In this document: one piece after another, positions 5,000 to 32,025 of the stretch | Numbering within the stretch: position 1 is the stretch's first letter | Layout: each line of letters begins with the position of its first letter | Source: Methanosarcinales archaeon | GTDB taxonomy: Archaea > Halobacteriota > Syntropharchaeia > Alkanophagales > Methanospirareceae | Direction: 5' to 3' | NCBI GenBank assembly: GCA_003661125.1 | Contig: QMVO01000001.1 | Location: forward strand, 1 to 33,225 | DNA: 33,225 nucleotides | Translations under genes and position numbers: made by a program | The notes under the pieces: generated by a model | Seen by the model: the letters and a program-made list of their open reading frames with translations, nothing else | What the model was told of the DNA's origin: nothing | Database searches by the model: none

Positions 5000-5131
5000 A
5001 TTTCATATTTTGAAATTAACACAAAAGTTAAGCTTGAAACAACACGAATCGTTCCAGGACCGGATAGCTTGCCCGCAGGCACTTATGTTGCTGTTGTTGT
5101 AGGATATAGCGGTAGGAGGTAACGATAGAAA

Positions 5132-5464
5132 ATGGGAAGAAAAATCGTCGAGGTCGTGATAGGAACTGTGGAAGTCGAAAGTGGACCGGGACCAGGTCCT
5201 GGACCGGGACCATCTCCTTCTGTTATAGATTCATTCATAGAAGAACATCGCAAGCTGAAAAATATACTTGACAGATACGGTGCGCAAGGCATGTGCGTAC
5301 CGCGTAGCGCACTGGAAAGAGAAAGCGGCATAAAAGGTGAACGCCTTGACAAACACATCGAAGTGTTTCAGGCACATTCTGCTATTTCCGAAGTAGACGG
5401 GGACATTTTATGTGGTCGTGAAGCTTTATCAAAACTAAAAGAGAAAATTAAACTGGAGCTATAA
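5132..5464 (+). CDS. small protein with a (Gly-Pro)5 linker and a C-terminal winged-helix-like domain; paralog of the next gene
   Basis: TAGGAGGT Shine-Dalgarno motif at 5113-5120. IDSFIEEHRKLKNILDRYGAQGMCVPRSALERESGIKGERLDKH aligns with IDRFIGTHKTILALLDIAGSKGECMTAEALKEQTGVSIEEIKRH in 5469-5729. Confidence 0.6.
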   Translation: MGRKIVEVVIGTVEVESGPGPGPGPGPSPSVIDSFIEEHRKLKNILDRYGAQGMCVPRSALERESGIKGERLDKHIEVFQAHSAISEVDGDILCGREALSKLKEKIKLEL

Positions 5465-5468
5465 CAAA

Positions 5469-5729
5469 ATGACACCAAATGAAGAAATAGATAGGTTCAT
5501 AGGCACCCACAAAACAATTTTAGCTTTGCTTGATATTGCAGGAAGCAAAGGTGAATGCATGACAGCGGAAGCTCTTAAAGAGCAAACTGGAGTGTCAATT
5601 GAAGAAATAAAACGGCATAATACCCTCGCAGAAATTGATTTGGGAATAGTACAGCCAGCAGAGGGGCTAACATGCTCCAGACGCGCTATTGCTGTGTTAA
5701 AGCGGAAACTTGAAGCGGCGATAGAATAG
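5469..5729 (+). CDS. small winged-helix-like protein; tandem paralog of 5132-5464
   Basis: The ORF starts 4 nt after the upstream stop. The alignment is given under 5132-5464. Confidence 0.6.
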   Translation: MTPNEEIDRFIGTHKTILALLDIAGSKGECMTAEALKEQTGVSIEEIKRHNTLAEIDLGIVQPAEGLTCSRRAIAVLKRKLEAAIE

Positions 5730-5731
5730 AG

Positions 5732-7090
5732 TTATTTTCTCACTCTCTTTTTGTGTTTTTTACTCTTTGCTTCCATAAACTGTTTTACAACTTCAGCTAT
5801 TTCATTATCGGACATTTTGTCTATAACCGATTGCCATAAGATTAGCGTTTCATAGCCGTGTTGTGAAAAGATAGCTTTTCTTCCGAATTCTGTCATTTTC
5901 CACGAGTTGTTTAATGTACCGTCATGAAAGACATCACCAAAGCATTCTATAAGTTGCATTCTCCCATTTATATTAACAAAATCCGGAATAAGCCCTCCTA
6001 TAGTTATACCACAATTACAACCACCGTTATATGCCCATTCGCCAGGAATATACTTTTGTAAAACTTTGTCTATGCGATATTCAAATTTGTTTGGCTTCGC
6101 TCTAAGGCCAGCAAACATCTTTTTTGCAACCTCGCTATTTCTCCATTGTTTTAGTGCGTTTTCAGACCTTTCTTGCTTCCCTCTTTCATCATTTGCCTGT
6201 TCTTTTATAGACTTTATGGGAATCTCAAACTTTTTTAAGCTTTTTAGAATAATTGTGCGACTACATCCAATCTCCTCTGCGATTTCTGTTATACGCTTTT
6301 GCTCAACGATATATCTTTGCCATAGAAAATCCCTATCATGCGCTTTTGGATACTTGAAGTTAGGATTGTTCTCTAGTTCCATGCTTCGGATAGGTATCCC
6401 TAAAGACTTTAAAACCCTACTTACACAGGTTGGGCTACATCCTACTATTGCAGCTATTTCTGTTTGGCTTAAACCTTCGGTGACATATTTTTGTATCATC
6501 CATTCCTTATTATACAGTTGATGATATTTTCGCTGTTTTTGATGATAAGAAGAAGTGTAATAGAAAAAGGTGCTCCGCCTCTTAATCCCCGCTTTTTCGA
6601 GTGCGTTACAAACTGCTACTGGGCTACAGCCTACAATTCTCGCAATGTCGCAAGAGTCGTGTTCCCTGTCTACATATTGCTCTTTTAGCCACTCGGCATC
6701 ATGTAGTAGTGGATATTTCGTAACCCTTTCACACCCTTTGCTTACCGCTTCCGACCTCGGTCGACGCGGAATATTTAATCTCCTCATAGCCTTACCAACA
6801 ACTTGGGGACAGCAACCTAACTCTTCTGCAATATTGAAAGTACTGAGTTCTTCCATCCAATATTTTCTAAAAAGCCAATCCCTATCTTGGAGTTCTGGAT
6901 ACTTAACGGGTGTTTTTATCTTTCCTGCTTCGGATAACGAACGCCTTGGGATATTCAACTTTTCCATCCAATCCAAAACGGTGCTGTATGAGCACCCTAC
7001 TTCTTTCGCTATCTCTACACTACTTAACTTTTCCACCCAATATTTCTTATATAACCACTCCTTATCCTCAAGCTGTGGGTATTTTGACAT
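5732..7090 (-). CDS. putative homing/selfish endonuclease: five tandem HTH repeats plus a C-terminal Vsr/DUF559-like PD-(D/E)XK nuclease domain
   Basis: Five repeats of about 56-63 aa each: KYP.L.D.(E/D)WL...Y......(E/D)IA...GCS...V......L.IP.R. The C-terminus ...GGLIPDFVNINGRMQLIECFGDVFHDG...GYETLILWQSVI matches the PDF...IE.(F/D)G..(W/F)H...GY..l..W pattern of Vsr-like nucleases. Confidence 0.65.
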   Translation of the reverse strand: MSKYPQLEDKEWLYKKYWVEKLSSVEIAKEVGCSYSTVLDWMEKLNIPRRSLSEAGKIKTPVKYPELQDRDWLFRKYWMEELSTFNIAEELGCCPQVVGKAMRRLNIPRRPRSEAVSKGCERVTKYPLLHDAEWLKEQYVDREHDSCDIARIVGCSPVAVCNALEKAGIKRRSTFFYYTSSYHQKQRKYHQLYNKEWMIQKYVTEGLSQTEIAAIVGCSPTCVSRVLKSLGIPIRSMELENNPNFKYPKAHDRDFLWQRYIVEQKRITEIAEEIGCSRTIILKSLKKFEIPIKSIKEQANDERGKQERSENALKQWRNSEVAKKMFAGLRAKPNKFEYRIDKVLQKYIPGEWAYNGGCNCGITIGGLIPDFVNINGRMQLIECFGDVFHDGTLNNSWKMTEFGRKAIFSQHGYETLILWQSVIDKMSDNEIAEVVKQFMEAKSKKHKKRVRK

Positions 7091-7225: not shown

Positions 7226-10200
7226 TTAGTCTATAACCGTTATTGTTGCATCTCCGGGTACTGACTCGAATCTAACAGTCTTTGTTACCGCCGCTTTCTT
7301 CAAATACATTTTCACTATGAAGTTACGCGAATATAACCCATGTGCACCGGGTGTTGAAGGTGTGCTACCATAACATACCGCCCCTTGCGATAATGCATAT
7401 TCACACCTGATACCCGAATCAGACACAGAAATAATCATCTCTAATGTTTCGTATCCACTGGCAACGGCTTTTATATAATGCCTGCCGAACGGTATGAGCC
7501 CGCCTGTTGCTATCTCCTTATATGTAGCGTTTGGTATATCATACGGTTTGTAATAGAACTTTGCGTTGATATTGTAGCCATCAGAGCCTGAATATGCTGA
7601 TAAATATATATATGTAGCTCTACATACTTTAGCAACTGTTGTTTCGTTTGCTTTTACATCCACATGGAACTTACATGGCGAGAAGCACTTGTCGAGTATA
7701 TTCACATAACAATAATCGTACTCTCCTTCCTTGCCCGCTATCTCTACCGTATGTGTACCTGCGGGCAATTTAGCCGTTACTGCATACCCACCGCCCTTAT
7801 CAGCCCCATCAATAAAGAAAGCAGCAACATTGCGAGGCGTAGTAAATGTAATAGTGTCGTATGTCGCTACCGTTAACTCTCCTTCTGGTGGTTTGGGTGT
7901 ACTTACCGTGATTTTCTGTGTTGTAGTCCCACAATTAGGCGGAGTTGCATCGTTACATGCTTCCAAGCGAATGCCCCACACGCCAACCTTATCAAAAGTT
8001 ATAGTTATTGTTTTACCAGTCTTCGTGGTTACAGCCCCGTCCGGGTCTGTAATTGTCCATGTCCACGACACGATTTTGTATGGCGCTTCAGTATGTGCCA
8101 TGCCTGTTAGTGTTACAGTCTCGCCTACACTAACAGTAGTAGGACCAATAATCTTTACATGATCTACACCCGGTGGCGCACCAGGACATGCGGGGAATGT
8201 GTCTCTACCAGTATCTGAACCAGCATAATATTCATAGATCATGTCAGCATCGTCACGCGTTACTTTACCGTCACCATTAACATCAGCTCGTTCCTTGAAT
8301 TCTGATTCTGATAAACCACCTACTTTATCTTTAATCGCATTCCAGCCGAGTTCTACATAATCCATAACGAGTTTTGCATCTTCGTCTGTGACATAATTAT
8401 TGGGGTCGTTGTTCACATTGCCATAGTTACTGCATGGTGATTCTCTGTATTCATACGCCCTTGATACAGTAACTGTCCTGTGCTCATCAATAGTTCCAGC
8501 ACAGATTTTGAGATGTATCTCGTAACTGCCTGCCTCAGTAAATGTGTGTGTAACTACCCGTCCAGTCTTCTTAACATCGTGCGGGAATGTCCATTCCCAA
8601 TCAGTTATTTCAGAATCAGCACAGCCTTTTGCATGCCCTTCAAAAGTTGTAGGAGTACCTACTCGTACGCTTTCACGCGCTCCTGAATAATAACTGAACC
8701 ATGCTCCCGTTGCTGGGCATACATACGCTTTAGGATTCCAGACGATAAGTTTTTCTTCTTTCGCTCTCTTCTCAGCATTTAAGAATTCTTTAGTATCTAC
8801 ATACTTGTTGCTATGGTAAAAGAAAACTTCACCTACACCGTTTCTTACTGCTTCTAAACATATATTTCTCGTTCCGTAGTAAATCGTTCCTAAGATTCTA
8901 TAATATTTGTCTAGCTGATCTAGTGGATCAACATATACTTTTACATCTGCACCGTCGATTGTACTAAACAGCCACATAGTAGCCTCGTCGTAAGCCCATT
9001 TAGTCACATCACGACAAGTTTCTGTGTTTGGAGCGTTCTCAACCTCTATCCTGCACGATACATAATGCCCCGCTATTGCGCCTTTATCTGGAGCGTTATA
9101 TCCAGTAAGTCGTATTGTAGCATATACAGGTATTCCCGGCTCCATATCAGGAGCTTTTTTAAGCCCTTCGAGAAACTTTTGGTATGTATCCCATCTCTTT
9201 TTTAACTCTTCTTGGGTCAAGCCAGTATGTATTGTATCACCGTCTATCACATCACATACATGTGTATAGAATTCACATTCATCTTCTTTCAGATGCGGTG
9301 GAACTTTATAAACTCGCGCAGCCAACATTTTGCGGCTTCTATCATGGAATTCTAAGCATGACATCGCAAATTTCCAGTATATCCCATAAAATGCTCTCCC
9401 AAACAGTGAGTTTACCCACGCTTTTGTGTCTTTTATCCACTCGGAATAAGCAAGCAGTTCCTGTTCTGCTGGTTGCCACTGCTCATCCTTTATGTAACCC
9501 TGAATCATAATTGGCCAGTTTTGAGGTAATTCTTCGATCAAAGCCCATGCGTGTGTCATCCCCCAACCAATATAAAGACCAATTGCCGATAATGCCAATG
9601 GACCAGCAATCCAAGGTTTTTTTAGATATGTCGCTGCATCTCTTATGAGTTCTTTTGCATACGATGAGAATTTTTGATCTACAAGCATAGCCGCTTTTGC
9701 ACGGCTAATACCAAAATCTTTGCTGACACAGTCAATAGCTTTATCTCGCACGCCGGGATAGAATCCAGATTTTTTGAAATCGTCTGCAAGCATATCCATC
9801 TCTGCAATGATTCTCGTTGGTCGTGTTCTTTCACTTCCAGCTCTTTTACCCCATTCATCAAACTGGTCGATAAGCGAACTTGCAAGTTGGTTCCATCCGC
9901 CTCTGAACGAACCTCTAGGTATTGGTGTATCTGTTTCGATACAAATCGAGCGCACTATGTTCATTAAGGCAGTATCTAAATCAAACCCTACATTGTTTCT
10001 TATTGCATCTAATTCTTCGTCTGTGATAGTTCTGAACCTATAAGCAAGTTTTGCCTCTGCTGGTCCTACTATCTCTCCCGTGTCCGTTACTTTACCGCCC
10101 AGCTTAGCAAAATAACGAGCAAATTCTTCGTCTGATAGCTTACGGACAGTTTTAAACATAACTTCAGGATTGTAGTATGAGAGGAATCGAATTGCTAATC

Positions 10201-13200
10201 TACCAGGATCAGATACCGCTTCTGCTCTTATAGCATTTCTTATCGTATTTATCATTAAGTTTTCTAGCGAATCATCCGTCTTCGTAAAGTGATACCACTG
10301 TATATGATTCTCTGCAACACGCGCTATTTCCTCTATCTCTTCACGGTTCGCACCTGTAGCGACGAAAATCTCATTCCATCTCTTCTCAGTGTAATGTTTA
10401 CTTAAATGTTCCTTCACATCATTGAAGAACTGTAAACGAACGCTTGGTTCTACATCTATTTCTGGAAGTTCGTTCAGTTCTGTTATTACACGATCCCAAT
10501 CTTTGGCACGCAAGGCTTGATTTATCCGTCTCAACCGTGTTTCGTCCGTGTGTGCTAACGCTTTCCAAAGTTGCGGAAATAGTGGATGTTTTGGACTGGT
10601 AATACCTTGCGCGTATAAGACTTTAGTAAGTTCAGGCAAATCAAGCTCTTCTTCTCCTCTGACAAGCTTGTTTAACGAATTAATAGCTGAGAACTTGCAA
10701 TGCCATGCCGATGGGCTACACAAAGCATCTGCGGCTTTTATGAACACCGTTATATTTTTTGCTCTATCACCATACCGCAATGTGTAGATATACGCAGGAT
10801 ATGCCTCGTCTAAGAGCTTAGCGTATTCGTCGGGGAATAAAGAAAGTTCCTCTAATGCTTCGCGATACGATTGATGTGAAAGAGACTCCTCGATCATATT
10901 CTCTAACCTTTCGAGATCGATATAAGCTAAAGTATCGTCTATCTCATCGGCATAGTCTGATACATCACGAGCACTGATCCTAATTATAGCAGCATCATCA
11001 AGCATTACCGATGCTTCTGCAAGTTCACCTTTTACTAAGTGCTTAATATACTTCTCTTTCTCCTCTGGCCGTGCTACTCTCCAGAAATGCCAGAACCTAT
11101 CTTCAGAGAACGCTTCAAAGACTGCTTTTCTAATGGCTTCTTTTGAATATGCAGCAGCTTCACTGAGGAGAAGACCCGTTTTTGAGAATTTGCCGAGTTT
11201 ATTAGCTTTATTAAATGCTGTCAATACCAATGCATAATCGTGCATAGCAGGTGTCATAGGTGTCCCATCAAGAGATTTACCGTGCTTTACAATCTCAAAA
11301 GATTCAAAAAAGTGATATTTAGGTTTTGCCCTACGCGCAAGCTTGAATGCACCATCCCAATTGTCATTTAACAATTTAGCCAATCTCTCTCCAGAACCGC
11401 GTACAAGGTCATCATCTCCTATATATGCAAGTAATTCACCAGCAGCTTCTCGCACATTGTCCCTAATATCCGCAACTACCTTCGCATAATCTGGGTGTGC
11501 AGGATCAATATTATCGATTTGCTTTTCAAGCTCGTCCAGCCACTGGTTAAACTTACTAATCGCTTCCGAATCTTTTATTGCAGGATTATTGAGAATGTCT
11601 TCTCCTAATCCTCTAGCTTTTTCTATGTCGCCATCAGCGATAGCCTTAATCCATAAATTCAATCTCGCCTCGTCACCATATACCAGTGTTCTATAAAATC
11701 TTTGTGGATCCTCTTCTATGAAATTCCTAACAGCAGCAACATCATCGCCATATTTACTGCCTTTCCTTATGACTTTACCCAGATACTTTGTTATATTGCC
11801 ACCCGGCACCATTGGCAGTAGCGAGCATACCACAACTATCGGAAACATAGCGAGGTCAAACGCATCGGGATGATACTCCGCACCATATATGTCCTTGCCC
11901 CTAAAAACACCTGAAATCACATTTGCACAATATACCGGGTCCAGCATATCTCCCCAGAACCGGCGGCATTCATCTGAATCTTTTGGTATGCCTACGAGCT
12001 CGCAAGCCTCACCAAAGACACCATAGCGAGAGTAGAGATATATTTCCTTCGTGCCCTCGAACTTACCACACCAAACAGGACCGGTAGGTAAATATCCTTT
12101 CGATACGCTAGGTCCTATGCCATATGTCTCGCCTTCTACCAGTCCATCGGCTTTAGTAAATACAGCCTTACCATCAGGATAGCTATCTGGTGATTTAAAG
12201 ATAGGCACGGCATCCGGTGTAGATAAAAAGCATCGTGCCCAGCCATACGCCTTTTTACAAAGAATTTGATCTCCTGTTTTAAATCCTCTAGTGTGTACAA
12301 TAAACTTATCCTCCTCTGTAATAAACCTGAGCGTGAACTCAAATTCATAAGTACCTTCGCCGTTCTCACCTTGGCGACGTGTTGTCACAGGCTTTGTCCA
12401 GTCCTCATGCATCTCTTCATTCAAATAGCCCGGCTTACCCGCTATGAATCCATATCTACAAGCAGCCCCGGGTAGTGATGGTAAGCCTATACTAAGAACA
12501 CCGTTATCGTCTGTCTTCAGGAGATTACCATAGCCGTTCCAGCTCTCGGTGGTGCATATACCTTGGTGCACCGTTATATCAGAGCACGGAACTTCCTGCC
12601 ATGTACCTTCAAAAATCTCTTTCGTGACACTTACATACGCGTGTTTTATACCATGACCTTTCTCGTCCTTTACGGTTATCCGTATTTCGTACGGTCTTCG
12701 TGTTTCTGTCTTGAAATCGAGCTCGTCATCTGATGGACAACCCTGTATTATCTGCCCGTCTTTGATATGGAAACTATAATCCTTGCCATATTCCATATCA
12801 ACATCGCAGCTTAAGAAGATTGTTTCGAGCTCGTCCTTGTTTAATGTTGTAGTACTGGTTTCGATACCGACTGTATTTCCAGAGCTACAGCCTGTACCTT
12901 TACGCAGCCACAGACAGCGACGGTACGATGGTAATCCACCCGTGTTCTTTACTATTAGCTTGAATAGTGGACGTTTACAATCCCCTAAATCTATTGTGCT
13001 GTTCTCTTTTAAGCCCCAGAAAGTTATACCGTTATCAATACTGTAAAAAGCCTCTACAATCTCTAACTTAGCTGGGGGTATCTTTTTTAATTTCAAGATT
13101 AGAGCCCATCCATAACAAGCGGTAAAAAGTTTACAACTCTCGCTGCCATAGGATTCGTAGCCTTCCTTTGATGCACATGCTGTGTATACTGTCCCTTTAT

Positions 13201-14269
13201 CAAGATTGCATAAATCACACTCACCATTTGCATCCGTCCCGTAGCCGCTACCGTCAGGCTTCTCGCATTGAATAGAGTAGGTGCCCATATCAATTGCTAC
13301 TGTGGCACCTTTTATGGGCTTACCCGAAGGTTCAATCACCTTAACGCGCTGTTTGCATGTGGTACTTCTAAGTTTCAGTGTTTTAAGGGATGTACAAGCA
13401 ACAAATTCTGTGCTGGAGTCTGAAATCACTTCATAACCTGAAGGTGCTGACGCTTCTGCTACACACCAAACTCCTTCTTCAATATCCTTTACTGTACATT
13501 CGCCATTAGAATCAGTTGTGCATCTACCAAGCTCTTTTGCAGTGCCTTTCTCTCTTACTATAACAACAGATTGGGAGACACGGGCACCCGTATCTTCCTC
13601 AATAACCCTAAAGGATTGGTTGCATGTAGACTTAGCCGATACTGTTATATACTCAGTTCTAGAACAGTCAGTATCATACAGACTAACCTGCCATGTGCCT
13701 GTAGTAGCATCATCAGGGATTGTATAAACCTTACCGCCAGTGCCGGACACAGTCCACGACTTGCCAGGTATCCCACTGGGATACGCACCGATATATAAAG
13801 TGCTATTTGGTGGTGCATTTTTGTAGCTTATCGCTACCGTATCGCCTTGGTAATATTCATCCTCGTCTGTCGAAACGGAGCAGGGCTTAGTTGTTTTTAC
13901 TTTCAAGTGTATAGTGCCAGCCGAATCATGATAATAGCATGTTCCACCTTCATACGAACCGCACTCTATCACCGCATCTTTGTCTGATGAGGGCATGCTG
14001 AAGGTACAATCAGGCATTTTCTCTTCCCATGCGCCTGCACTTATATACTTCTTTTTCCAGCAACGAATTTGTCCGCCCCACTTAATATAGTAGCAAGCCG
14101 TGCCTGCGGTGTTATTTGTGTTATTAACAAATGCTCTTGCGGTAAGTGTTGCCCCTGCTGGCGCTATGAGCGTATCGCCAGGATGGTATATCTTGTTATT
14201 GTACCATATATATGCACTATAAAATTCGTATGCTGGTCCTAGTGTTCGCCCTTTCGGTTTCCTCGCCAT
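7226..14269 (-). CDS. giant (2347 aa) multidomain virion/adhesin-like protein with an embedded staphylococcal-nuclease (SNase)-like domain
   Basis: A single uninterrupted ORF. All aa positions are approximate. N-terminus: Ig-like and Cna-B/transthyretin-like repeats (TTDSNGECTVKDIEEGVWCVAEASAPSGYEV; TDANGECDLCNLDKGTVYTACASKEGYES). About aa 400-520: CARDB-like module. About aa 840-1650: helical region, with hydrophobic helices FDLAMFPIVVVCSLLPMVPGG (just before it) and WIAGPLALSAIGLYIGWGMTHAWALI (inside it). About aa 1665-1825: SNase-like (VIDGDTIHTG...IRLTGYNAPDKG...DKYYRILGTIYY...EAVRNGVGEV). Then two PKD-like units, two dockerin/EF-hand loops (NNDPNNYVTDEDAKLVMDYV; DVNGDGKVTRDDADMIYEYY), PEGA units, and a truncated PEGA end VRFESVPGDATITVID*. 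No signal peptide. Confidence 0.8.
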   Translation of the reverse strand: MARKPKGRTLGPAYEFYSAYIWYNNKIYHPGDTLIAPAGATLTARAFVNNTNNTAGTACYYIKWGGQIRCWKKKYISAGAWEEKMPDCTFSMPSSDKDAVIECGSYEGGTCYYHDSAGTIHLKVKTTKPCSVSTDEDEYYQGDTVAISYKNAPPNSTLYIGAYPSGIPGKSWTVSGTGGKVYTIPDDATTGTWQVSLYDTDCSRTEYITVSAKSTCNQSFRVIEEDTGARVSQSVVIVREKGTAKELGRCTTDSNGECTVKDIEEGVWCVAEASAPSGYEVISDSSTEFVACTSLKTLKLRSTTCKQRVKVIEPSGKPIKGATVAIDMGTYSIQCEKPDGSGYGTDANGECDLCNLDKGTVYTACASKEGYESYGSESCKLFTACYGWALILKLKKIPPAKLEIVEAFYSIDNGITFWGLKENSTIDLGDCKRPLFKLIVKNTGGLPSYRRCLWLRKGTGCSSGNTVGIETSTTTLNKDELETIFLSCDVDMEYGKDYSFHIKDGQIIQGCPSDDELDFKTETRRPYEIRITVKDEKGHGIKHAYVSVTKEIFEGTWQEVPCSDITVHQGICTTESWNGYGNLLKTDDNGVLSIGLPSLPGAACRYGFIAGKPGYLNEEMHEDWTKPVTTRRQGENGEGTYEFEFTLRFITEEDKFIVHTRGFKTGDQILCKKAYGWARCFLSTPDAVPIFKSPDSYPDGKAVFTKADGLVEGETYGIGPSVSKGYLPTGPVWCGKFEGTKEIYLYSRYGVFGEACELVGIPKDSDECRRFWGDMLDPVYCANVISGVFRGKDIYGAEYHPDAFDLAMFPIVVVCSLLPMVPGGNITKYLGKVIRKGSKYGDDVAAVRNFIEEDPQRFYRTLVYGDEARLNLWIKAIADGDIEKARGLGEDILNNPAIKDSEAISKFNQWLDELEKQIDNIDPAHPDYAKVVADIRDNVREAAGELLAYIGDDDLVRGSGERLAKLLNDNWDGAFKLARRAKPKYHFFESFEIVKHGKSLDGTPMTPAMHDYALVLTAFNKANKLGKFSKTGLLLSEAAAYSKEAIRKAVFEAFSEDRFWHFWRVARPEEKEKYIKHLVKGELAEASVMLDDAAIIRISARDVSDYADEIDDTLAYIDLERLENMIEESLSHQSYREALEELSLFPDEYAKLLDEAYPAYIYTLRYGDRAKNITVFIKAADALCSPSAWHCKFSAINSLNKLVRGEEELDLPELTKVLYAQGITSPKHPLFPQLWKALAHTDETRLRRINQALRAKDWDRVITELNELPEIDVEPSVRLQFFNDVKEHLSKHYTEKRWNEIFVATGANREEIEEIARVAENHIQWYHFTKTDDSLENLMINTIRNAIRAEAVSDPGRLAIRFLSYYNPEVMFKTVRKLSDEEFARYFAKLGGKVTDTGEIVGPAEAKLAYRFRTITDEELDAIRNNVGFDLDTALMNIVRSICIETDTPIPRGSFRGGWNQLASSLIDQFDEWGKRAGSERTRPTRIIAEMDMLADDFKKSGFYPGVRDKAIDCVSKDFGISRAKAAMLVDQKFSSYAKELIRDAATYLKKPWIAGPLALSAIGLYIGWGMTHAWALIEELPQNWPIMIQGYIKDEQWQPAEQELLAYSEWIKDTKAWVNSLFGRAFYGIYWKFAMSCLEFHDRSRKMLAARVYKVPPHLKEDECEFYTHVCDVIDGDTIHTGLTQEELKKRWDTYQKFLEGLKKAPDMEPGIPVYATIRLTGYNAPDKGAIAGHYVSCRIEVENAPNTETCRDVTKWAYDEATMWLFSTIDGADVKVYVDPLDQLDKYYRILGTIYYGTRNICLEAVRNGVGEVFFYHSNKYVDTKEFLNAEKRAKEEKLIVWNPKAYVCPATGAWFSYYSGARESVRVGTPTTFEGHAKGCADSEITDWEWTFPHDVKKTGRVVTHTFTEAGSYEIHLKICAGTIDEHRTVTVSRAYEYRESPCSNYGNVNNDPNNYVTDEDAKLVMDYVELGWNAIKDKVGGLSESEFKERADVNGDGKVTRDDADMIYEYYAGSDTGRDTFPACPGAPPGVDHVKIIGPTTVSVGETVTLTGMAHTEAPYKIVSWTWTITDPDGAVTTKTGKTITITFDKVGVWGIRLEACNDATPPNCGTTTQKITVSTPKPPEGELTVATYDTITFTTPRNVAAFFIDGADKGGGYAVTAKLPAGTHTVEIAGKEGEYDYCYVNILDKCFSPCKFHVDVKANETTVAKVCRATYIYLSAYSGSDGYNINAKFYYKPYDIPNATYKEIATGGLIPFGRHYIKAVASGYETLEMIISVSDSGIRCEYALSQGAVCYGSTPSTPGAHGLYSRNFIVKMYLKKAAVTKTVRFESVPGDATITVID

Positions 14270-22762: not shown

Positions 22763-23830
22763 ATGAAATTGGAATTGGAAAGTTTAGCTGAAGAGTTGGA
22801 ACGAGCAAAAGCGAACTCGAAGGATATAATCGTCGACACACAGAACATCCAGATGGAGTCTTGCAACAACGACACAGTACTGAACATAAACGGTGAAACA
22901 TATCCACTTACCGATTGGGCGCACACGCAAATCGCTGAAAAGCTCGGCATCCCAGTGAAATACTACAATAAAATGCGAGAATCAGGCAAAACAGAACTGC
23001 TCGCAGAAAATGTGAATGCATGGATGCCTGTACGCGAAAGGCGACTGATACGGATACTTTACAACCGCGTTAGAGCTTTCCTATCTGATAGATACCGACC
23101 TATGGACAACTACGACTTGCTGTTCTGCGCACTTGACGAATTCAGGCATCACGATGTGGAGATACACAGGTGTGATCTTACCGAGACATATATGTATATC
23201 AAAGCTTTTCAGCCAGCAGAGATCAGACAGATAGATACAGAATACGGAACTGTCAGTGTTATACCGGGATTGATATTGTCAAATAGCGAAGTGGGTGCCG
23301 GGAGCATGAAAGTAGAGCCCGCACTACTGAATATAGGCTGCAAAAATGTGTTTATAGCGTCTGCGCAGTTCAAAGCTGTGCATATCGGCAGGCGAAGGGG
23401 CGAAGGTGATATATGGGCTGATGATACACTACGATTGCAAGATGAAGTGCTGTGGCGTGAGGTACGCGATACGATTAGAGCAGCGTTCGATACCGAGCGG
23501 TTTGTTAGAGCAGTGGAGCGATTCTCGGAAGCGGCAGAGAACAAAGTTAAATCGCCAACAATTGTAGTTGACAGCATTGCCTCGCACTACAGCATAAGCG
23601 AAGAGAGAAAGAAAAAGCTGCTCTACTACTTCGCTAAAGAATCACCTACACAGCTCGGTGTAGCAAATGCTATTACGAGATTGGCACAGGACGAGGAAAG
23701 AGCAGAGGAGCAGGTAGAGTTAGAGCGATTAGGATACAACATTGTGGCAATGAAAAAGCAAGCGTTTAACAGCCTTATAAAAGAAAAGGAGGGTGATGAT
23801 AGTAAAGGGATAGAAATAACAATCGAATAG
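22763..23830 (+). CDS. hypothetical protein (355 aa), possibly DUF932-like phage/plasmid-associated protein
   Basis: ORF track. YPLTDWAHTQIAEKLGIPVKYYNKM resembles the conserved N-terminal motif I recall for DUF932-type proteins. This is from memory only. Confidence 0.5.
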   Translation: MKLELESLAEELERAKANSKDIIVDTQNIQMESCNNDTVLNINGETYPLTDWAHTQIAEKLGIPVKYYNKMRESGKTELLAENVNAWMPVRERRLIRILYNRVRAFLSDRYRPMDNYDLLFCALDEFRHHDVEIHRCDLTETYMYIKAFQPAEIRQIDTEYGTVSVIPGLILSNSEVGAGSMKVEPALLNIGCKNVFIASAQFKAVHIGRRRGEGDIWADDTLRLQDEVLWREVRDTIRAAFDTERFVRAVERFSEAAENKVKSPTIVVDSIASHYSISEERKKKLLYYFAKESPTQLGVANAITRLAQDEERAEEQVELERLGYNIVAMKKQAFNSLIKEKEGDDSKGIEITIE

Positions 23831-24224: not shown

Positions 24225-24752
24225 ATGAAAAAAATAGAAGAGCTTGCGAAAAAGGCTAATCCTGCTCTTCGTTTATTTTTTAAGCCTGAAGGCTTAAAAC
24301 TAATGCCCGAAAAGCGATATAACGAAGTGATGAACATATTACAAAAAGAAGAACCAACGCATTACGAGCGGTTATGGATGGTGGGGTATCTTAAGTGGCT
24401 GGGATTCACCGCAGATGAGATTATGGCAATCATAGACAATCGTAACAACTGGCTCGATTATGATAGGAATATCACATGGTATCAAATATGCTCAGTATTC
24501 AAGACTAAGGCTAAAAAACCGCGCGTGGCAAGACATGAAAAGCTACACAAACGAGAAAAGATTGATTTACCACCGCTGTCCAAACGACAACAGAAAGAAT
24601 TACAGCGCGCGGCTAACTGGAAAGCTGATGAGTTAATAACACAAGCGCTTAGAGAGCAATATAATATCGTGTGGTATCCTTGGGAGAGCGAAGAGATAAG
24701 GCAGTTAGATAGTGAAATCCTACCAGATGCATATCTCGCAAGAACTACATAA
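24225..24752 (+). CDS. hypothetical protein (175 aa) with a weak resemblance to primase C-terminal (PriCT-like) helical domains
   Basis: ORF track. HYERLWMVGYLKWLGFTADEIMAIIDNRNNWLDYDRNITWYQICSVF loosely fits the R..L......L...G.s.eei......n......pl...e....i.s pattern. Low certainty. Confidence 0.45.
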   Translation: MKKIEELAKKANPALRLFFKPEGLKLMPEKRYNEVMNILQKEEPTHYERLWMVGYLKWLGFTADEIMAIIDNRNNWLDYDRNITWYQICSVFKTKAKKPRVARHEKLHKREKIDLPPLSKRQQKELQRAANWKADELITQALREQYNIVWYPWESEEIRQLDSEILPDAYLARTT

Positions 24753-24875
24753 CTATCATGCGCCACACCCACAAATTTCTACCATAGCAAAAATGTTCTA
24801 CCTTGTCACGATAAATTATATTACCCACACGTGAAAATTTCGATAGAAGCGAAAAATAACAACTATTACACAACA

Positions 24876-25865
24876 TCAACTAAGCTTCGCTGTGACTTCA
24901 AACAATCGTACAAAAATTATCTCTGCGCCACTTCTGCTCTTAAACATAAGCATGAGATGCGTCACATGATTGAGTTTGTACGGCACATAAACAGCTACCG
25001 TATTCGAACCTTTGTGTATATATCTTGGAAACGGAAATACACTCGGCTGGACACTCATCTTGAACTCCTGTGAAGACTCTATATTCAATATTAGCCTAGC
25101 GCCAAAGAACGACTTTACTACCTTATAGCTTGTGATAGTCACTGCTTTTTCTGGCTCTGGCTGTGGTTCATGCTCTTTTGGCTTGACTATCCATGCCTCT
25201 GGTATTGGATAGCTCAGTGGTAGTGTTCCATAACCATCATCACCCCAGTCATCTCCCCACGAATTCTTGAATTCAAAGACTTTATTATCGAGGTCGTATC
25301 CGGTAATAACAATCGCGTGATAACCCAAGAACTTACCCGACGGCATTTTTATCTTGCCGTTAGAGCGCCATGAAGCATCATATACAGGAACTGCTGCAAA
25401 AACAGGCAATTTATTTGCAAATATAGTGCCTGGCAAATCATAATAAACGCGATGATAACTGCCAATACGATACTGCTCCGCTTCTTTGTTCATACGCGTT
25501 GGTGAACATACTTTTTGTAGACACTTGTTAGAGATAGGGAAGCAAGCATTAACACACGTGCCTTGCTTTTTCATAATCTTCAGCGCATCCCTTAGTTCCA
25601 TCCCTCTACCTGCATTTGCACGCCGCTCATAGACCCAACATTCGGAGAGATCCACACCATCAAAGAAAGGTCGTGATTCTGCAATCGCGCAGATAGCGCA
25701 CGCTACACAAATAGGCATCCCATCCTGATCAATCACATGCGATTGACTATCTCTGAGACTGAACTTTCGCGGGATGGGTGTGGTAGTAGGTGCCGCGTAC
25801 TGCACATCTCTGAGGTCTCCCCGCGATAACAGCGCGGCACACGGATACACACGAGCTGATTTCAT
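24876..25865 (-). CDS. papain-family (C1-like) cysteine peptidase with an extra C-terminal domain of about 90 aa; no signal peptide
   Basis: Candidate catalytic Cys region DQDGMPICVACAICAIAES. His region FLGYHAIVITGYD. Asn/Trp region FEFKNSWGDDWGDDGYGTL, which matches the hallmark NSWG..WG..GY of papain-like peptidases. Confidence 0.7.
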   Translation of the reverse strand: MKSARVYPCAALLSRGDLRDVQYAAPTTTPIPRKFSLRDSQSHVIDQDGMPICVACAICAIAESRPFFDGVDLSECWVYERRANAGRGMELRDALKIMKKQGTCVNACFPISNKCLQKVCSPTRMNKEAEQYRIGSYHRVYYDLPGTIFANKLPVFAAVPVYDASWRSNGKIKMPSGKFLGYHAIVITGYDLDNKVFEFKNSWGDDWGDDGYGTLPLSYPIPEAWIVKPKEHEPQPEPEKAVTITSYKVVKSFFGARLILNIESSQEFKMSVQPSVFPFPRYIHKGSNTVAVYVPYKLNHVTHLMLMFKSRSGAEIIFVRLFEVTAKLS

Positions 25866-25868
25866 AGA

Positions 25869-26540
25869 TTACGGTTGCTCTTCCGAGAAGATGGGAGGGA
25901 GAGGTTCAACATCCTGCCATACACATAGGTGAGACAAGCCAGTTTCGGGTACGGGCGCTTCGGGCGTTGGTACAGGAATAGACCACTCAACTGAAGCTGA
26001 TAGCGCGTATTTATTCGCTCTCACTGTAGACTTTGAGATAGCATTATCAATACCGACGCCAGACTTTGCTCCACCGCGCGTACCCTCTATCAAGTACGCG
26101 TGCTGTAACGAAAATGGTACTACTTGCATGGATACTGCAACATCCATCTCGCCTTCGCTATTCGCTGCTATACCGGAGACAACTGCGTGGCATGTATCGT
26201 TAGTAAGCCTATTACCAACGCCGATGTTCTCGATATATGCACTTCCCGCGATGATGCCCTCGCCTGCGCGCGATGATAAGTTAGTAGCGAGTGTTAGCCC
26301 TGCCGAATCTACAATAGCTGATTTGGCATAGCTAAACTGAGATGCTTTCGTTATTGATAACGATGAATCGTATAACACCGATATCGAAGCATTACACAAT
26401 TGAAGGGAATCTGAAGATGTTGCATCTGATTCGCCCTCGCCCATCATCGTGACACTATAAACTAACTGCGCTGATGCACTGCCTACGAAAGCTACTACTA
26501 AAAAAAGCGCTATGGCTATCGCATATAGCTTCTTATGCAT
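25869..26540 (-). CDS. secreted protein of unknown function with a Sec-type signal peptide
   Basis: MHKKLYAIAIALFLVVAFVGSASA/Q gives a classic n-h-c signal with an A-S-A site. The rest is Ser/Ala/Gly/Val-rich and beta-like. It overlaps the upstream membrane-protein gene by 8 nt. Confidence 0.6.
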   Translation of the reverse strand: MHKKLYAIAIALFLVVAFVGSASAQLVYSVTMMGEGESDATSSDSLQLCNASISVLYDSSLSITKASQFSYAKSAIVDSAGLTLATNLSSRAGEGIIAGSAYIENIGVGNRLTNDTCHAVVSGIAANSEGEMDVAVSMQVVPFSLQHAYLIEGTRGGAKSGVGIDNAISKSTVRANKYALSASVEWSIPVPTPEAPVPETGLSHLCVWQDVEPLPPIFSEEQP

Positions 26541-26796
26541 TCTGGAACCACCTCATCACCGCCTTTAGCGCATTCTCCACAATAACAACTATACCAGCGT
26601 ATGCAGCGAACTGCGTTGCTACTGCTTCTTCTGTTATCACAGCTCCTTTGACATATAAGACCACACCAACGAGTGCCCCAACCAAGACTGTAGTCGCAAA
26701 CTTCGTAACATCGAATTCTTCATCTTTCGCTGATTTTAAATACCCGGACATTGCAAACACTATTGCCGCAACCACAGAAAATATTATCGCTTCCAT
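26533..26796 (-). CDS. small membrane protein (87 aa, 2-3 TM helices), holin-like
   Basis: TM candidates AIIFSVVAAIVFAMSGYL, FATTVLVGALVGVVLYV and FAAYAGIVVIV, with a polar/charged C-terminus. AGGTG Shine-Dalgarno motif 7 nt upstream. Confidence 0.55.
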   Translation of the reverse strand: MEAIIFSVVAAIVFAMSGYLKSAKDEEFDVTKFATTVLVGALVGVVLYVKGAVITEEAVATQFAAYAGIVVIVENALKAVMRWFQNA

Positions 26797-26852
26797 TTCG
26801 CGACACCTAATAATAGTTATGAAATTAAACTATATAAAAAGGTTTTGGTAGT

Positions 26853-29468: not shown

Positions 29469-30440
29469 TCATGTTGTTCCTTTTAGTGCACCATCCACAC
29501 GAATTTCAACGCCTGATATTTCTGTACCATTATTGTCTTTTGCGATAAAAGTCACCTTTTTCTTGCCTTTATAACATCCCGGACAGAGTTTGTTAATTGA
29601 TTTGCGATAGTATGCCTCACCAACATAATCAAATTCAGGTTCGGCTATTTTGCCATTGACCCAATCCTTATGGCAAGCATCTAGCTCGTTAACATCTATT
29701 ACCCCATCATTATTCTTGTCATAGTAAAGGATTAGCTCACAGCCTGTTTCAAGCAATAAGCTCCCATAAGGGTTGTTATCACACAGAATCTCACCAGGAC
29801 ATTTTGCATTTATACTACCATATCGCGGATCAGAGCTAGGATACGCAAATAAAGAACTTATAAAGTGGAACTCTTCCTCTGTTAGTTTACCTTGGTGAAA
29901 CATTTCATCTGCTTTAGCAAGATCTGAAGACGTTAGATATCCATCATTGTCTGTATCGAAGTATTCAAGCATCGCATAGCCTGACTCAAAGTGTGGTGTT
30001 GGTGCATAACACCCTAAAGGTCTCTCTAACCAGTAGGCTTTCCCTACTTCTAAAGTATTTGTGTAAATAAACCTGCCTTCATCATAGTTATACCCCTGTA
30101 CATGCCATTCCAACCCTGTACCTTCCACGTTTATAGGTTCTGTACCGGGTCCAACCAGCGCCCACTCGCCATGCTTTAATGATCTATAAATTGTTAGCAA
30201 GTCATCAAATGTTACTGTACAATCCGTTCCGCTTATTGTTATCTCTCTAGTTCCCCACGGAACATATACATAATAGCCTTTTGAACATTCTAGGTTCGTC
30301 GCGTGAACCCACTTACCTTCCTTATACTCCCATACCTCTACATCTGGACCGAAAACGCTGGCGGGGTCGGATGGCGAAGGTATCACCGGTATTGATATAT
30401 AATTCTCGAGGGTTCTGAGGTTGATCGTATATTCTGACAT
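29469..30440 (-). CDS. surface/virion-like protein (323 aa) with two EF-hand/dockerin-like loops and a truncated PEGA-like tag
   Basis: YFDTDNDGYLTSSDLAKADEMF and YYDKNNDGVIDVNELDACHKDW. The module SINKLCPGCY is shared with the 763-aa protein. Ends KKVTFIAKDNNGTEISGVEIRVDGALKGTT*. No signal peptide. Confidence 0.7.
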   Translation of the reverse strand: MSEYTINLRTLENYISIPVIPSPSDPASVFGPDVEVWEYKEGKWVHATNLECSKGYYVYVPWGTREITISGTDCTVTFDDLLTIYRSLKHGEWALVGPGTEPINVEGTGLEWHVQGYNYDEGRFIYTNTLEVGKAYWLERPLGCYAPTPHFESGYAMLEYFDTDNDGYLTSSDLAKADEMFHQGKLTEEEFHFISSLFAYPSSDPRYGSINAKCPGEILCDNNPYGSLLLETGCELILYYDKNNDGVIDVNELDACHKDWVNGKIAEPEFDYVGEAYYRKSINKLCPGCYKGKKKVTFIAKDNNGTEISGVEIRVDGALKGTT

Positions 30441-30865: not shown

Positions 30866-30985
30866 CAACTACCCACCGTTAAAACGGTAGGCTTGCGGGT
30901 GAATCATCATGCACCGCACTCATCCCCGCCTCAGGCTGGTTGACAACAACCCTGTGAGTTGGAGCCCGCTCCCAACTCACTCAGG
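30866..30985 (-). ncRNA. candidate omega-RNA (reRNA) scaffold overlapping the tnpB 3' end and right end
   Basis: In characterised TnpB systems the guide RNA derives from the 3' end of tnpB plus the right end. Stem-loops here are at 30954-30979 (gtgagttgg..ccaactcac) and 30871-30890. The extent and guide cannot be set without RNA data or a covariance model. Confidence 0.35.
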
Positions 30986-32025
30986 TTCATAGAGGCAACA
31001 AGGTCCGCATTATCTTGGAAACCGCAGTTGATACACCGGAACAGCGCCTGCGTCCTCCTGTTCCTCTTGTCTATCACACCACATCTTGGACAATGCTGCG
31101 ATGTATACGCGGGATCCACTCGGATAACGGGTATACCTCTTTCAGAGCATTTGTATTCTATCATTGTGCTGAGCTTTCTGAACGCCCAGCTATGGAAGTT
31201 CGCTCTGTCATTCTTCCGTCTCTTGACGCGGTCTCTTATGCCCGTGAGATCCTCCAGCACCACTACATCGCCTTCCTTGAGGCTGTCAACGAATTCTCTG
31301 CTTATCTGGTGCAAGACGGTATTTGCCCATCGATTCTCCTTACCACTAAGCCGTTTAAGCTTCCTCTTCGCAGAGGAAGTGCCTATTTTCTGGAGTGTTT
31401 GCCTCTGTTTCCTATAATGTTCCCTCTTCGCTTTTATATCACCCCCTTTTCGTTTAAATCCGTTGGAAGCGACAAGAATATTTCGTTCGCCGATGTCCAC
31501 ACCCACATAATTGCTCCCTTCAGGATCAGGAAGCTCGTATCTGACGGTGATATGGACATAGATGTCATCATCTCTGAAAGTAATCTTGGCATCTCTTACG
31601 GGATTATTCAGGAGCTGTCGCTGATAATCGCCTATGTCAAGTGCGAGTTTCACGCGTCCATGAAGGGTAGCAATAGAGATTCTGAAATCGCCATTGTTCC
31701 TGAGCAGAGTAAAGAGTTTCTTATCCAGATCCATACTAAGCTGTCTAAACTTGTGTTGCCTGTGCCGGTTCTGTTTATACGATTTCGCTACGCGGTCACG
31801 CGCCCGGACTGCGAGATTCGCAGGGAGTTTGTAGCGCTCTCTTACCGTTCTGTAAGTGAAATGGTGCAATGCGACGGAGTTGAAACACCTCTTGGTAAAA
31901 GCAACCTCGCTGATATAGTTACAGGCATCTCTGAAAGCTATTGCAGTCTCCCTTATCTTCTCCGCTTCCTCTTCCATCTCGCGCAGCTTACATACTACCG
32001 TCTTTATCGCTTCCATCATGTTCAT
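30931..32025 (-). CDS. tnpB: TnpB (OrfB) RNA-guided RuvC-like nuclease
   Basis: RuvC-I YVGVDIGERN, RuvC-II VVVLEDLTG, zinc finger CPRCG...CINCG, RuvC-III QDNADLVASMNL. The catalytic D/E/D all appear intact. 364 aa is typical for TnpB. Confidence 0.85.
   Translation of the reverse strand: MNMMEAIKTVVCKLREMEEEAEKIRETAIAFRDACNYISEVAFTKRCFNSVALHHFTYRTVRERYKLPANLAVRARDRVAKSYKQNRHRQHKFRQLSMDLDKKLFTLLRNNGDFRISIATLHGRVKLALDIGDYQRQLLNNPVRDAKITFRDDDIYVHITVRYELPDPEGSNYVGVDIGERNILVASNGFKRKGGDIKAKREHYRKQRQTLQKIGTSSAKRKLKRLSGKENRWANTVLHQISREFVDSLKEGDVVVLEDLTGIRDRVKRRKNDRANFHSWAFRKLSTMIEYKCSERGIPVIRVDPAYTSQHCPRCGVIDKRNRRTQALFRCINCGFQDNADLVASMNLSELGAGSNSQGCCQPA

Follow-up and report, generated by a model that had tools for sequence, protein, structure and literature searches.

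Genes and signals at the locus

The stretch of DNA analysed here (contig QMVO01000001.1, 33,225 nucleotides (nt), referred to as the window) is GBM163, a published mobile element of anaerobic methanotrophic archaea of group 1 (ANME-1; Alkanophagales) from the Guaymas Basin, as identified by the match of its first bases to the supplementary FASTA file of Laso-Pérez et al. (2023). Three open reading frames (ORFs) follow each other closely on its minus strand: 26533-26796 encodes a small membrane protein of 87 amino acids (aa), 25869-26540 a predicted Sec-exported protein of 223 aa, and 24876-25865 a papain-family cysteine peptidase of 329 aa. The stop codon of the first gene (26533-26535) overlaps the start of the second (ATG at 26540) by 8 nt, and a gap of 3 nt separates the stop of the second (25869-25871) from the ATG of the third (25865). 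A first-pass annotation of the sequence had described the three genes as tightly linked, and both their coordinates and their junctions were confirmed. The genes are translationally coupled. Their counterparts in other viral contigs are 32-57% identical, stand in the same order and keep the 8-nt overlap; the three are real genes, and the full triad is present in three diverged lineages. The earlier annotation had also made conservation of the cassette a touchstone, and the triad proves both conserved and mobile: it comes after tail-fibre or adhesin-like genes and is found in otherwise different viral genomes.

A TATA-box-like element (TTTTTATATA, 26831-26840, minus strand) lies in the 56-nt gap that precedes the 87-aa gene, about 35-40 nt before the ATG. 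Together with the purine-rich stretch that precedes it, AAAACC-TTTTTATATA resembles an archaeal transcription factor B recognition element (BRE) followed by a TATA box, and the TATA-like element is kept in the close relatives L009 and L010 (L numbers denote the comparison loci) despite differing flanking bases. A Shine-Dalgarno-like AGGTG (26804-26808, minus strand) lies 7 nt upstream of the ATG. Similar GGTG-type motifs occur ahead of the module in L001, L175 and L009, and in L001, L175 and L178 an AT-rich TATA-like stretch is followed by a GGTG-type motif. Downstream, 20 nt past the peptidase stop codon, an oligo-T tract (T5 within TTATTTTTC, 24852-24856, minus strand) resembles an archaeal terminator; T-rich tracts are found at the equivalent place in L009 and L010. 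The triad is convergent with a plus-strand gene at 24225-24752. These signals were read by eye and by resemblance to the archaeal consensus, and a scan for sigma-70 promoters and terminators was uninformative, the element being archaeal. Since the triad has TATA-like and Shine-Dalgarno-like signals of its own upstream and a T5 tract downstream, it is probably a transcription unit in its own right. The first-pass annotation had placed it at the end of the adhesin operon; the triad is more than a simple operon tail.

Two further observations concern the surroundings of the module in other loci. A winged-helix DNA-binding protein of 97-101 aa is encoded 3' of the module in L001 (9410-9703), L209 (2379-2672) and L175 (7917-8219); the proteins of L001 and L175 are homologous (E = 1.5e-15), and they may be dedicated regulators of the module. 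The window has no equivalent directly downstream. An extremely basic ORF of 25 codons (VKERKGEKRKKAKEGEGGKSKRERG) lies between the second and the third gene in L001 (8295-8372) and L005 (1066-1143). It is probably not a real gene and marks a purine-rich spacer that is missing from the window.

Pairing of a sheath-like protein with a cysteine peptidase

By sequence identity the 223-aa protein is GBM163_37, one of the viral sheath-like (SH-like) proteins that Medvedeva, Borrel and Gribaldo published in 2024 (ISME J, PMC11576556; their Supplementary Data 1). The first-pass annotation had called it a secreted protein; the export signal stands, and the protein is reclassified here as an already published SH-like protein and as the peptidase's invariant partner. 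When 1.84 billion representative proteins were searched exhaustively with HMMER, only 11 clusters (50% identity) of this family were returned, all of 214-247 aa and, wherever examined, on small, virus-like metagenome contigs. The genomic context of all 11 clusters was inspected, and in every one of them a papain-fold cysteine peptidase without signal peptide is encoded 0-1 genes downstream of the SH-like gene. Six clusters (the window with L009-L011, L001-L005, L209/L210, L006-L008, L012/L014/L015 of the GBV302 lineage, and L181) have the C1 type with C-terminal domain that is found in the window. The remaining five (L175/L176, L177, L178, L179/L180 and L013) have an unrelated small type of 126-157 aa, the assignment of L013 being based on a 30-residue N-terminal fragment. 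This second type is characterised by an invariant Cys, a His about 33 residues on, and a Glu-Pro about 16 residues further (motif FDCDDFA...H...EPQ), positions that presumably correspond to the catalytic triad of the MOA-like protease domain. No argument for a joint function of the SH-like protein and a cysteine peptidase is stronger than the replacement of one peptidase family by an unrelated one at a fixed position (non-orthologous replacement).

In the searchable literature this linkage appears to be unreported. The paper that defines the SH-like proteins treats them as stand-alone markers, does not use the word 'peptidase', and uses 'protease' once and hypothetically (PMC11576556). For the virus GBV302, whose protein GBV302_061 is 94% identical to the SH-like protein of L015, a 'PET_C39-like endopeptidase' (WAE39590.1, 331 aa, TM-score 0.556) has been listed, alone, as a structure-predicted endolysin (ISME J 2025, PMC12596118); that study draws no link between WAE39590.1 and the SH-like gene, and describes no family-wide pairing. 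Judged by its length (331 aa, as the C1 peptidase beside the SH-like gene of L014, an arrangement shared by L015) and its lineage, WAE39590.1 is probably the ortholog of the peptidase discussed here.

Some loci with the second type of peptidase have additional features. In L179 (3251-4750) the MOA-like peptidase gene appears to be split by an intein: an insert of about 340 aa, intein-like and with a weak LAGLIDADG match, sits immediately ahead of the putative catalytic Cys (...EGRD|CLLPET...NNLCSN|CDDYA...). With this insert taken out, the protein aligns cleanly to its family. The MOA-like peptidases of L178 (1807-2280), L179 (3251-3340) and L013 (945-1031) also carry a Cys-rich N-terminal extension with twin CX3C (e.g. 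QCVRDCKKAGGSLFTCIRKC), which could bind a metal or form a disulfide hairpin.

The SH-like loci of Methanothrix viruses (n = 27) may be organised differently from those of the ANME-1 viruses. Local hidden Markov models (HMMs) identified no C1 peptidase and only weak MOA-like matches in three of these loci, and Pfam recognised no peptidase among 54 neighbouring genes. The SH-like families of the two virus groups align with an hhalign probability of only 2%. The Methanothrix-virus loci (L182-L208) show another recurrent cluster, in which the SH-like gene overlaps a gene for a secreted or transmembrane (TM) protein of about 106-135 aa and is accompanied by genes for a protein of about 170-190 aa and a 2-TM protein of 64-88 aa. 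In L192, L193 and L195 a signal-peptide protein of 144 aa with the motif WDC...GHSW...IEAT (local HMM, E of about 1e-3) is encoded just upstream. Pfam recognises neither this protein nor those of the cluster.

Properties of the three proteins

The peptidase scores 38 bits against Pfam PF00112 Peptidase_C1 (E = 2.5e-9; gathering cut-off 20.7) and matches phrog_16701, annotated 'peptidase', with E = 4.2e-20. Its catalytic domain (approximately residues 31-228, positions 25182-25775) is defined by the PF00112 match, the catalytic residues and the fold. Gln47, Cys53, His183, Asn201, Ser202 and Trp203 are invariant or near-invariant in the family alignment and stand in canonical order, and the motifs GYHAIVITGY and FKNSWG align to PDB entry 3OIS (xylellain) and to cathepsin B. 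3OIS is the match in the PDB by sequence (E = 2.7e-11, about 23% identity) and also in a Foldseek search with the predicted structure (pLDDT 74.6), with E = 3e-11 and a TM-score of 0.65, normalised to the target; the model has a papain fold. Further Foldseek matches, all with probability 1.00, include Der p 1, cathepsin B and falcipain. By residues and fold, the protein is an intact papain-family C1 enzyme. The papain hallmarks and the absence of a signal peptide given in the first-pass annotation thus both hold: the maximum Kyte-Doolittle hydropathy over 10 residues is 1.23 at the N-terminus of the peptidase, as compared to 3.39 in the 223-aa protein.

A Pro-rich linker (PKEHEPQPEPEK) joins the catalytic domain to a C-terminal domain of about 90 residues (approximately residues 242-329, positions 24879-25142), so that the layout of the enzyme is endolysin-like. 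The earlier annotation had pointed to an extra C-terminal domain; the model places beta strands there (residues 242-326, pLDDT about 73-90), and the domain is kept only in the ANME-virus subfamily (37% identity, E of about 4e-14) and missing from generic C1 peptidases. Based on the predicted strands and the conservation, we consider it a putative targeting domain. IMG/VR contains two close relatives of the peptidase and hundreds of distant phage C1 peptidases. Among 185,579 species genomes no close cellular relative was found, the best matches being bacterial C1 enzymes with about 30% identity, and the relatives in these genomes revealed neither an integrated copy nor a link to a host. In Pfam the peptidase matches C1-type families only; neither the catalytic domain (C71) nor the binding repeats of the pseudomurein endoisopeptidases (Pei) were matched. 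An apparent truncation of the L009 peptidase proved to be an artefact of gene calling, the full frame being open.

Export of the 223-aa protein is predicted from a typical Sec signal peptide, in which MHKK precedes a hydrophobic core and SASA|Q, in agreement with the textbook signal peptide of the first-pass annotation. Signal peptides are found in 16 of the 16 aligned members of the family; behind them the body is rich in beta structure, and a Pro-rich linker leads to the C-terminal tail, which is invariant and reads LCVW, 6-8 residues, and P[IVL]F (PIF in the window), with C205 and W207 invariant. The AlphaFold2 model (pLDDT 82, pTM 0.75) consists of a signal helix, eight long antiparallel strands, four of them 21-26 residues long, and a disordered tail. 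In the published account, the core of SH-like proteins is an amyloid-like fold in which two antiparallel beta sheets have six strands each (PMC11576556), and the eight-strand all-beta model appears compatible with this description. A profile search of the SH-like protein against the PDB gave no sequence match.

Two segments of the 87-aa protein are clearly hydrophobic (approximately residues 3-20 and 33-49), and another, at 62-80, is amphipathic; the tail is short and basic. This bears out the 2-3 TM helices and polar tail first annotated. Its charge distribution fits an orientation with the N-terminus out and the C-terminus in. The tail ends in ...LKAVMRWFQNA (+2) in the window and in ...LKGLLRRIRNG (+4) in L001. 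Homologs, found in the clade of the window, L001-L005 and L209/L210, are all exactly 87 aa long and 53-57% identical, and their genes always overlap the next gene by 8 nt. Two lineages, L177 and L013, encode at the equivalent position a small 2-TM protein without detectable homology to it; the overlap in L177 is likewise 8 nt. Since the protein or such an analogue stands beside the SH-like/peptidase pair in only 5 of 11 clusters, it is an accessory component of the module. Searches of Pfam, PHROG and PADLOC gave no family match. The protein shares with holins a small size, at least one TM segment, and a gene in one unit with that of the putative lytic enzyme; as a holin it is an unproven candidate, picked out by size, topology and position. 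The virus-associated pyramid protein (PVAP; STIV C92 and SIRV2 P98) measures about 90-100 aa and has one TM helix, at its N-terminus. The 87-aa protein differs from it by its 2-3 hydrophobic segments and matches nothing in PHROG or Pfam, although this comparison, made by description without direct alignment to C92 or P98, is a weak test.

A possible route of virus egress

Phage genomes offer a precedent for C1 peptidases at lysis loci. At 77 IMG/VR loci, genes for peptidoglycan hydrolases or holins make up about 10 of the 132 immediate neighbours of C1 peptidase genes, as compared to 0 of 115 control genes taken five positions away (one-sided Fisher test, p = 0.0016; 25 most frequent families of each scan). 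In Thermoanaerobacterium phage THSA-485A (L174, NC_018264.1, locus 4864-6618), whose host is an S-layered Gram-positive bacterium, the C1A peptidase gene is located directly 3' of the gene for a GH25 endolysin.

Because the triad is conserved as a whole, the SH-like and peptidase genes are paired in all 11 clusters, the peptidase lacks a signal peptide and has an endolysin-like layout, phages offer a precedent, published work points independently to egress for GBM163_37 and to an endolysin for the probable ortholog WAE39590.1, PADLOC gives no match to a defence system, and the module is mobile and positioned after adhesin-like genes, we propose that the triad may be a self-contained, protease-based module by which an ANME-1 virus breaches the envelope of its host at egress, a reading to which we assign an even chance. 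It has been proposed that SH-like proteins are exported, co-assemble with the sheath subunits of the host and weaken the sheath at egress (Medvedeva et al., PMC11576556). Beyond the gene anatomy, protein families and conservation described above, we infer export, release, substrate and timing along the following lines. The SH-like protein would be exported and would insert into or dock onto the proteinaceous sheath of the host, thereby weakening or marking it. The cysteine peptidase would meanwhile build up in the cytoplasm, possibly restrained by its conserved N-terminal extension of 30 residues, as in xylellain. Where present, the 87-aa protein would collect in the membrane and permeabilise it as class I holins do (three TM segments, N-out, C-in). 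The freed peptidase, guided by its C-terminal beta domain, possibly via the LCVW...PIF tail of the SH-like protein, would then cleave sheath and/or S-layer protein, and the cell would open.

The target is probably the sheath and/or the S-layer. The first-pass annotation had suggested a protease that acts on the S-layer after passing through a holin-like pore, as an analogue of an endolysin. From this suggestion the conserved cassette, the intact C1 enzyme and the endolysin-like layout are retained, but the part of the pore is left to a candidate only, and a target consisting of the S-layer alone is not: the S-layer is kept as a possible substrate, and as the secreted partner is a published sheath-like protein the target would include the ANME-1 sheath. 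The cassette plausibly acts in lysis, following the logic of holin and endolysin, with the murein hydrolase replaced by a protease plus a structural mimic. A more specific version, in which the sheath mimic serves as a landing site via its tail, the protease is freed by a new family of pore formers, and two papain-fold families were recruited independently, is rather doubtful.

Evidence against lysis and alternative explanations

Several results weigh against egress as the function of the module. Lysis-gene neighbours are found for only about 13% of generic phage C1 peptidases, and a cytoplasmic peptidase could, as far as its sequence goes, equally act inside the cell. Six of the 11 lineages have no small membrane protein adjoining the SH-like/peptidase pair, and similarity to holin families in Pfam and PHROG is not significant (best match phrog_1299, a holin, E = 0.21, with the L001 homolog). 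The assignment of the second peptidase type is likewise below accepted thresholds: the L178 peptidase matches Pfam PF18021 Agglutinin_C with E = 1.1e-4 and 23 bits (cut-off 26.8), and the family profile matches PDB 3PHZ, with the motif aligned, at a non-significant E = 0.13. For the SH-like model a Foldseek search of the PDB and BFVD gave nothing significant (TM-scores below 0.25), and the HMMER search and the host sheath-protein files revealed no sequence homology of the SH-like family to cellular sheath proteins. The authors of the SH-like set assigned its members by signal peptide, size and manual inspection of AlphaFold models; homology is not part of the definition, and they consider that viral SH-like proteins are possibly too divergent for sequence comparison (PMC11576556). 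'Sheath-like' is accordingly a published structural hypothesis that our models neither confirm nor refute. The sheath itself has a patchy distribution, being present in about 40% of ANME-1 genomes.

The alternative that we rank highest is a function other than lysis, either maturation of the SH-like protein by the peptidase or remodelling of the cell surface by the module. In the case of maturation the peptidase would, for instance, trim or transpeptidate the LCVW...PIF tail before or during export, which we consider unlikely but worth serious attention; to the same degree this applies to the remodelling version, in which the altered surface would serve superinfection exclusion, receptor masking or modified cell-cell contacts, with the 87-aa protein as the membrane assembly partner of the SH-like protein. 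The invariants of the family are indeed the gene pair and a conserved disordered tail with invariant Cys and Trp, a tail that is missing from the host sheath-protein files; the 87-aa gene is coupled to the SH-like gene and not to the peptidase gene, the membrane protein is dispensable in six of 11 lineages, and non-lytic alternatives for SH-like proteins have been given by Medvedeva et al. (PMC11576556). On the other hand, a peptidase without signal peptide and a substrate that is exported unfolded via Sec would meet only in the cytoplasm, two unrelated peptidase families would need to recognise one and the same tail, the targeting-like extra domain of the C1 type is not obviously needed by a processing enzyme, and in the phage precedents C1 peptidases sit with lysis genes. 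Somewhat less likely again is that the pore is formed by another protein, either by the SH-like beta-hairpin protein acting from outside or by an unlinked holin, and that the 87-aa protein serves in timing, in antiholin-like control or in anchoring. Most lineages have the pair without the 87-aa protein, three unlinked holin candidates have been predicted in GBV302 (PMC12596118), and the SH-like model is made of very long beta hairpins, its top, non-significant Foldseek entries being pore-state MACPF/CDC toxins. With TM-scores of 0.2 or below and an rmsd above 30 Å these toxins were rejected as a real similarity. Strong conservation of the 87-aa protein, with an unvarying length and overlap with the SH-like gene wherever it is present, and analogous small 2-TM proteins at the same position in L177 and L013 also speak against this explanation.

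Two further explanations have little weight. The peptidase might be an intracellular protease for host takeover or anti-defence, its adjacency to the SH-like gene being mechanistically meaningless. The missing signal peptide would fit such a role, as would the location of most generic phage C1 peptidases away from lysis genes, but adjacency in 11 of 11 lineages despite non-orthologous replacement, genes that overlap or lie 3-4 nt apart, and the absence of any PADLOC match make it improbable. Triad proteins and neighbours alike gave no match in PADLOC, and a known defence system was therefore rejected as an identification of the triad. Least probable of all is that the peptidase matures the prohead or capsid, or serves in entry as part of the virion; maturation is a role that the first-pass annotation had itself named as fatal to its proposal. 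Capsid-maturation proteases are common in viruses, and the module is found near adhesin or tail-fibre-like genes. C1, however, is not known as a prohead protease family. The HK97-type capsid gene of L001 and its neighbours form a separate block about 7 kb away on the other strand, the constant partner of the peptidase is exported and could not be packaged into particles assembled in the cytoplasm, and the ekchuahviruses of ANME-1 have their own capsid maturation proteases beside the capsid genes (PMC9894754). The gene context in L001 and the family C1 effectively exclude a prohead protease. The egress module thus continues to be the reading that we prefer.

Relation to known systems

The window protein is a member of the SH-like set, which it resembles in its signal peptide, a length within the range of 159-288 aa, an all-beta structure and the lack of a cap domain. 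It is included in the authors' own listing, where a signal peptide and 150-350 aa are the criteria, and it has both (PMC11576556). Different from the set as published, the SH-like gene of the window is the centre of a conserved module of 2-3 genes, and its ANME family has the LCVW...PIF tail.

With the holin-endolysin cassettes of phages the triad shares a small multi-TM gene beside a signal-less enzyme composed of catalytic domain, linker and putative binding domain, as well as mobility and a position after tail-fibre-like genes. It differs in that the enzyme is a papain-family protease and not a peptidoglycan hydrolase, that an exported structural mimic lies between the two and is the most conserved partner, and that the membrane protein is outside the known holin families and often missing.

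ANME-1 archaea are not known to have pseudomurein. PeiW, PeiP and PeiR belong to family C71, have a transglutaminase-like fold and cut the peptide cross-link of pseudomurein. These cysteine peptidases are used by methanogen viruses for lysis and consist of a catalytic and a wall-binding module, without signal peptide and without an identified holin (PMC10791045). Like them, the triad enzyme is a signal-less cysteine peptidase of an archaeal virus with a catalytic domain and an extra module, but as a member of family C1 it would need to cut envelope layers made of protein. Xylellain (3OIS) is the best match of the triad peptidase by sequence and by fold, with conservation of the N-terminal xDxRDxxY segment, although the identity is as low as quoted above. 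Cwp84 of Clostridioides difficile (PDB 4CI7), also among the Foldseek matches, is a C1 protease whose extra domain is lectin-like; it processes the S-layer protein and is therefore a precedent for a C1 enzyme that acts on a surface layer. In contrast to the viral, signal-less peptidase with its different C-terminal domain, Cwp84 is a secreted housekeeping enzyme of the cell. For the second type of peptidase, comparisons are offered by the PF18021 domain, the papain-like cysteine protease domain at the C-terminus of MOA and PSL1a, and by bacterial transglutaminase-like cysteine proteinases of the LapG type, LapG being known for cleavage of a cell-surface adhesin; the motif FDCDDFA...H...EPQ is common to the five lineages with this type, the matches are below curated thresholds, and the window has no such protein.

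The element and its other genes

The type of GBM163 has been given as 'Unclear' (Laso-Pérez et al. 2023). Its close relative L009 (Ga0116200_10000007, 42.5 kb) is assigned to the Caudoviricetes, at about 28% completeness, by the geNomad annotation of IMG/VR as tabulated in PMC11576556. That no capsid or terminase gene was found in the window would be explained if it is, as is probable, only part of the genome of a large head-tailed virus. A known phage or plasmid was considered and rejected, as the INPHARED phage collection gave no nucleotide match to the window; the identity as GBM163 comes from the literature.

A TnpB/IS605 OrfB-type gene (Cas12f1-like_TNB, OrfB_IS605; 30931-32025) is located just upstream of the adhesin-like operon. 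TnpB has a different position in the relatives L009 and L010, which suggests active movement of insertion sequences within this group of viruses. The window also encodes a free-standing LAGLIDADG-type endonuclease (1556-2641) and a 452-aa protein composed of several helix-turn-helix modules (5732-7090) that matches HNH or DNA-binding PHROGs. A DUF932 protein (phrog_1362) is encoded near the module, on the opposite strand in the window (22763-23830) and on the same strand in L006 (7652-8710). Homologs are common across actinobacteriophages, and as tblastn returned bacteriophage homologs only, this neighbour was discarded as a classifier of the element.

Proteins of the dockerin and cohesin type recur. 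A giant protein of 2347 aa with Dockerin_1, PKD and SNase domains is encoded at 7226-14269, and a 323-aa protein with EF-hand or dockerin-like calcium loops at 29469-30440, upstream of the triad. L175 (6878-7528) encodes a secreted cohesin-plus-dockerin-like protein that is flanked by two MOA-like peptidase genes. Together these proteins are a hint at docking of the cohesin-dockerin type at the ANME-1 cell surface.

Implications

The holins of archaeal viruses remain elusive, and a holin-endolysin system of the murein type is unworkable in hosts without pseudomurein (2024 review, PMC10791045). How lytic viruses leave such archaea is an acknowledged gap. The module described here brings together what had been published as two separate hints, namely an SH-like protein and a single endopeptidase predicted from structure, in a recurrent set of 2-3 genes. 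It offers a candidate enzyme for the degradation of archaeal sheath or S-layer protein as well as a candidate family of archaeal-virus holins, and an SH-like gene followed by a cysteine peptidase gene could serve as a genomic marker in the search for egress genes of uncultured archaeal viruses. Should the three-part version be true, it would be the first protease-based lysis system of archaeal viruses aimed at a proteinaceous envelope, and the independent filling of the protease slot by two families would imply strong selection for this route of exit. The release of methane from marine sediments is controlled by ANME-1 archaea, and lysis by viruses contributes a major share to the turnover of these archaea.

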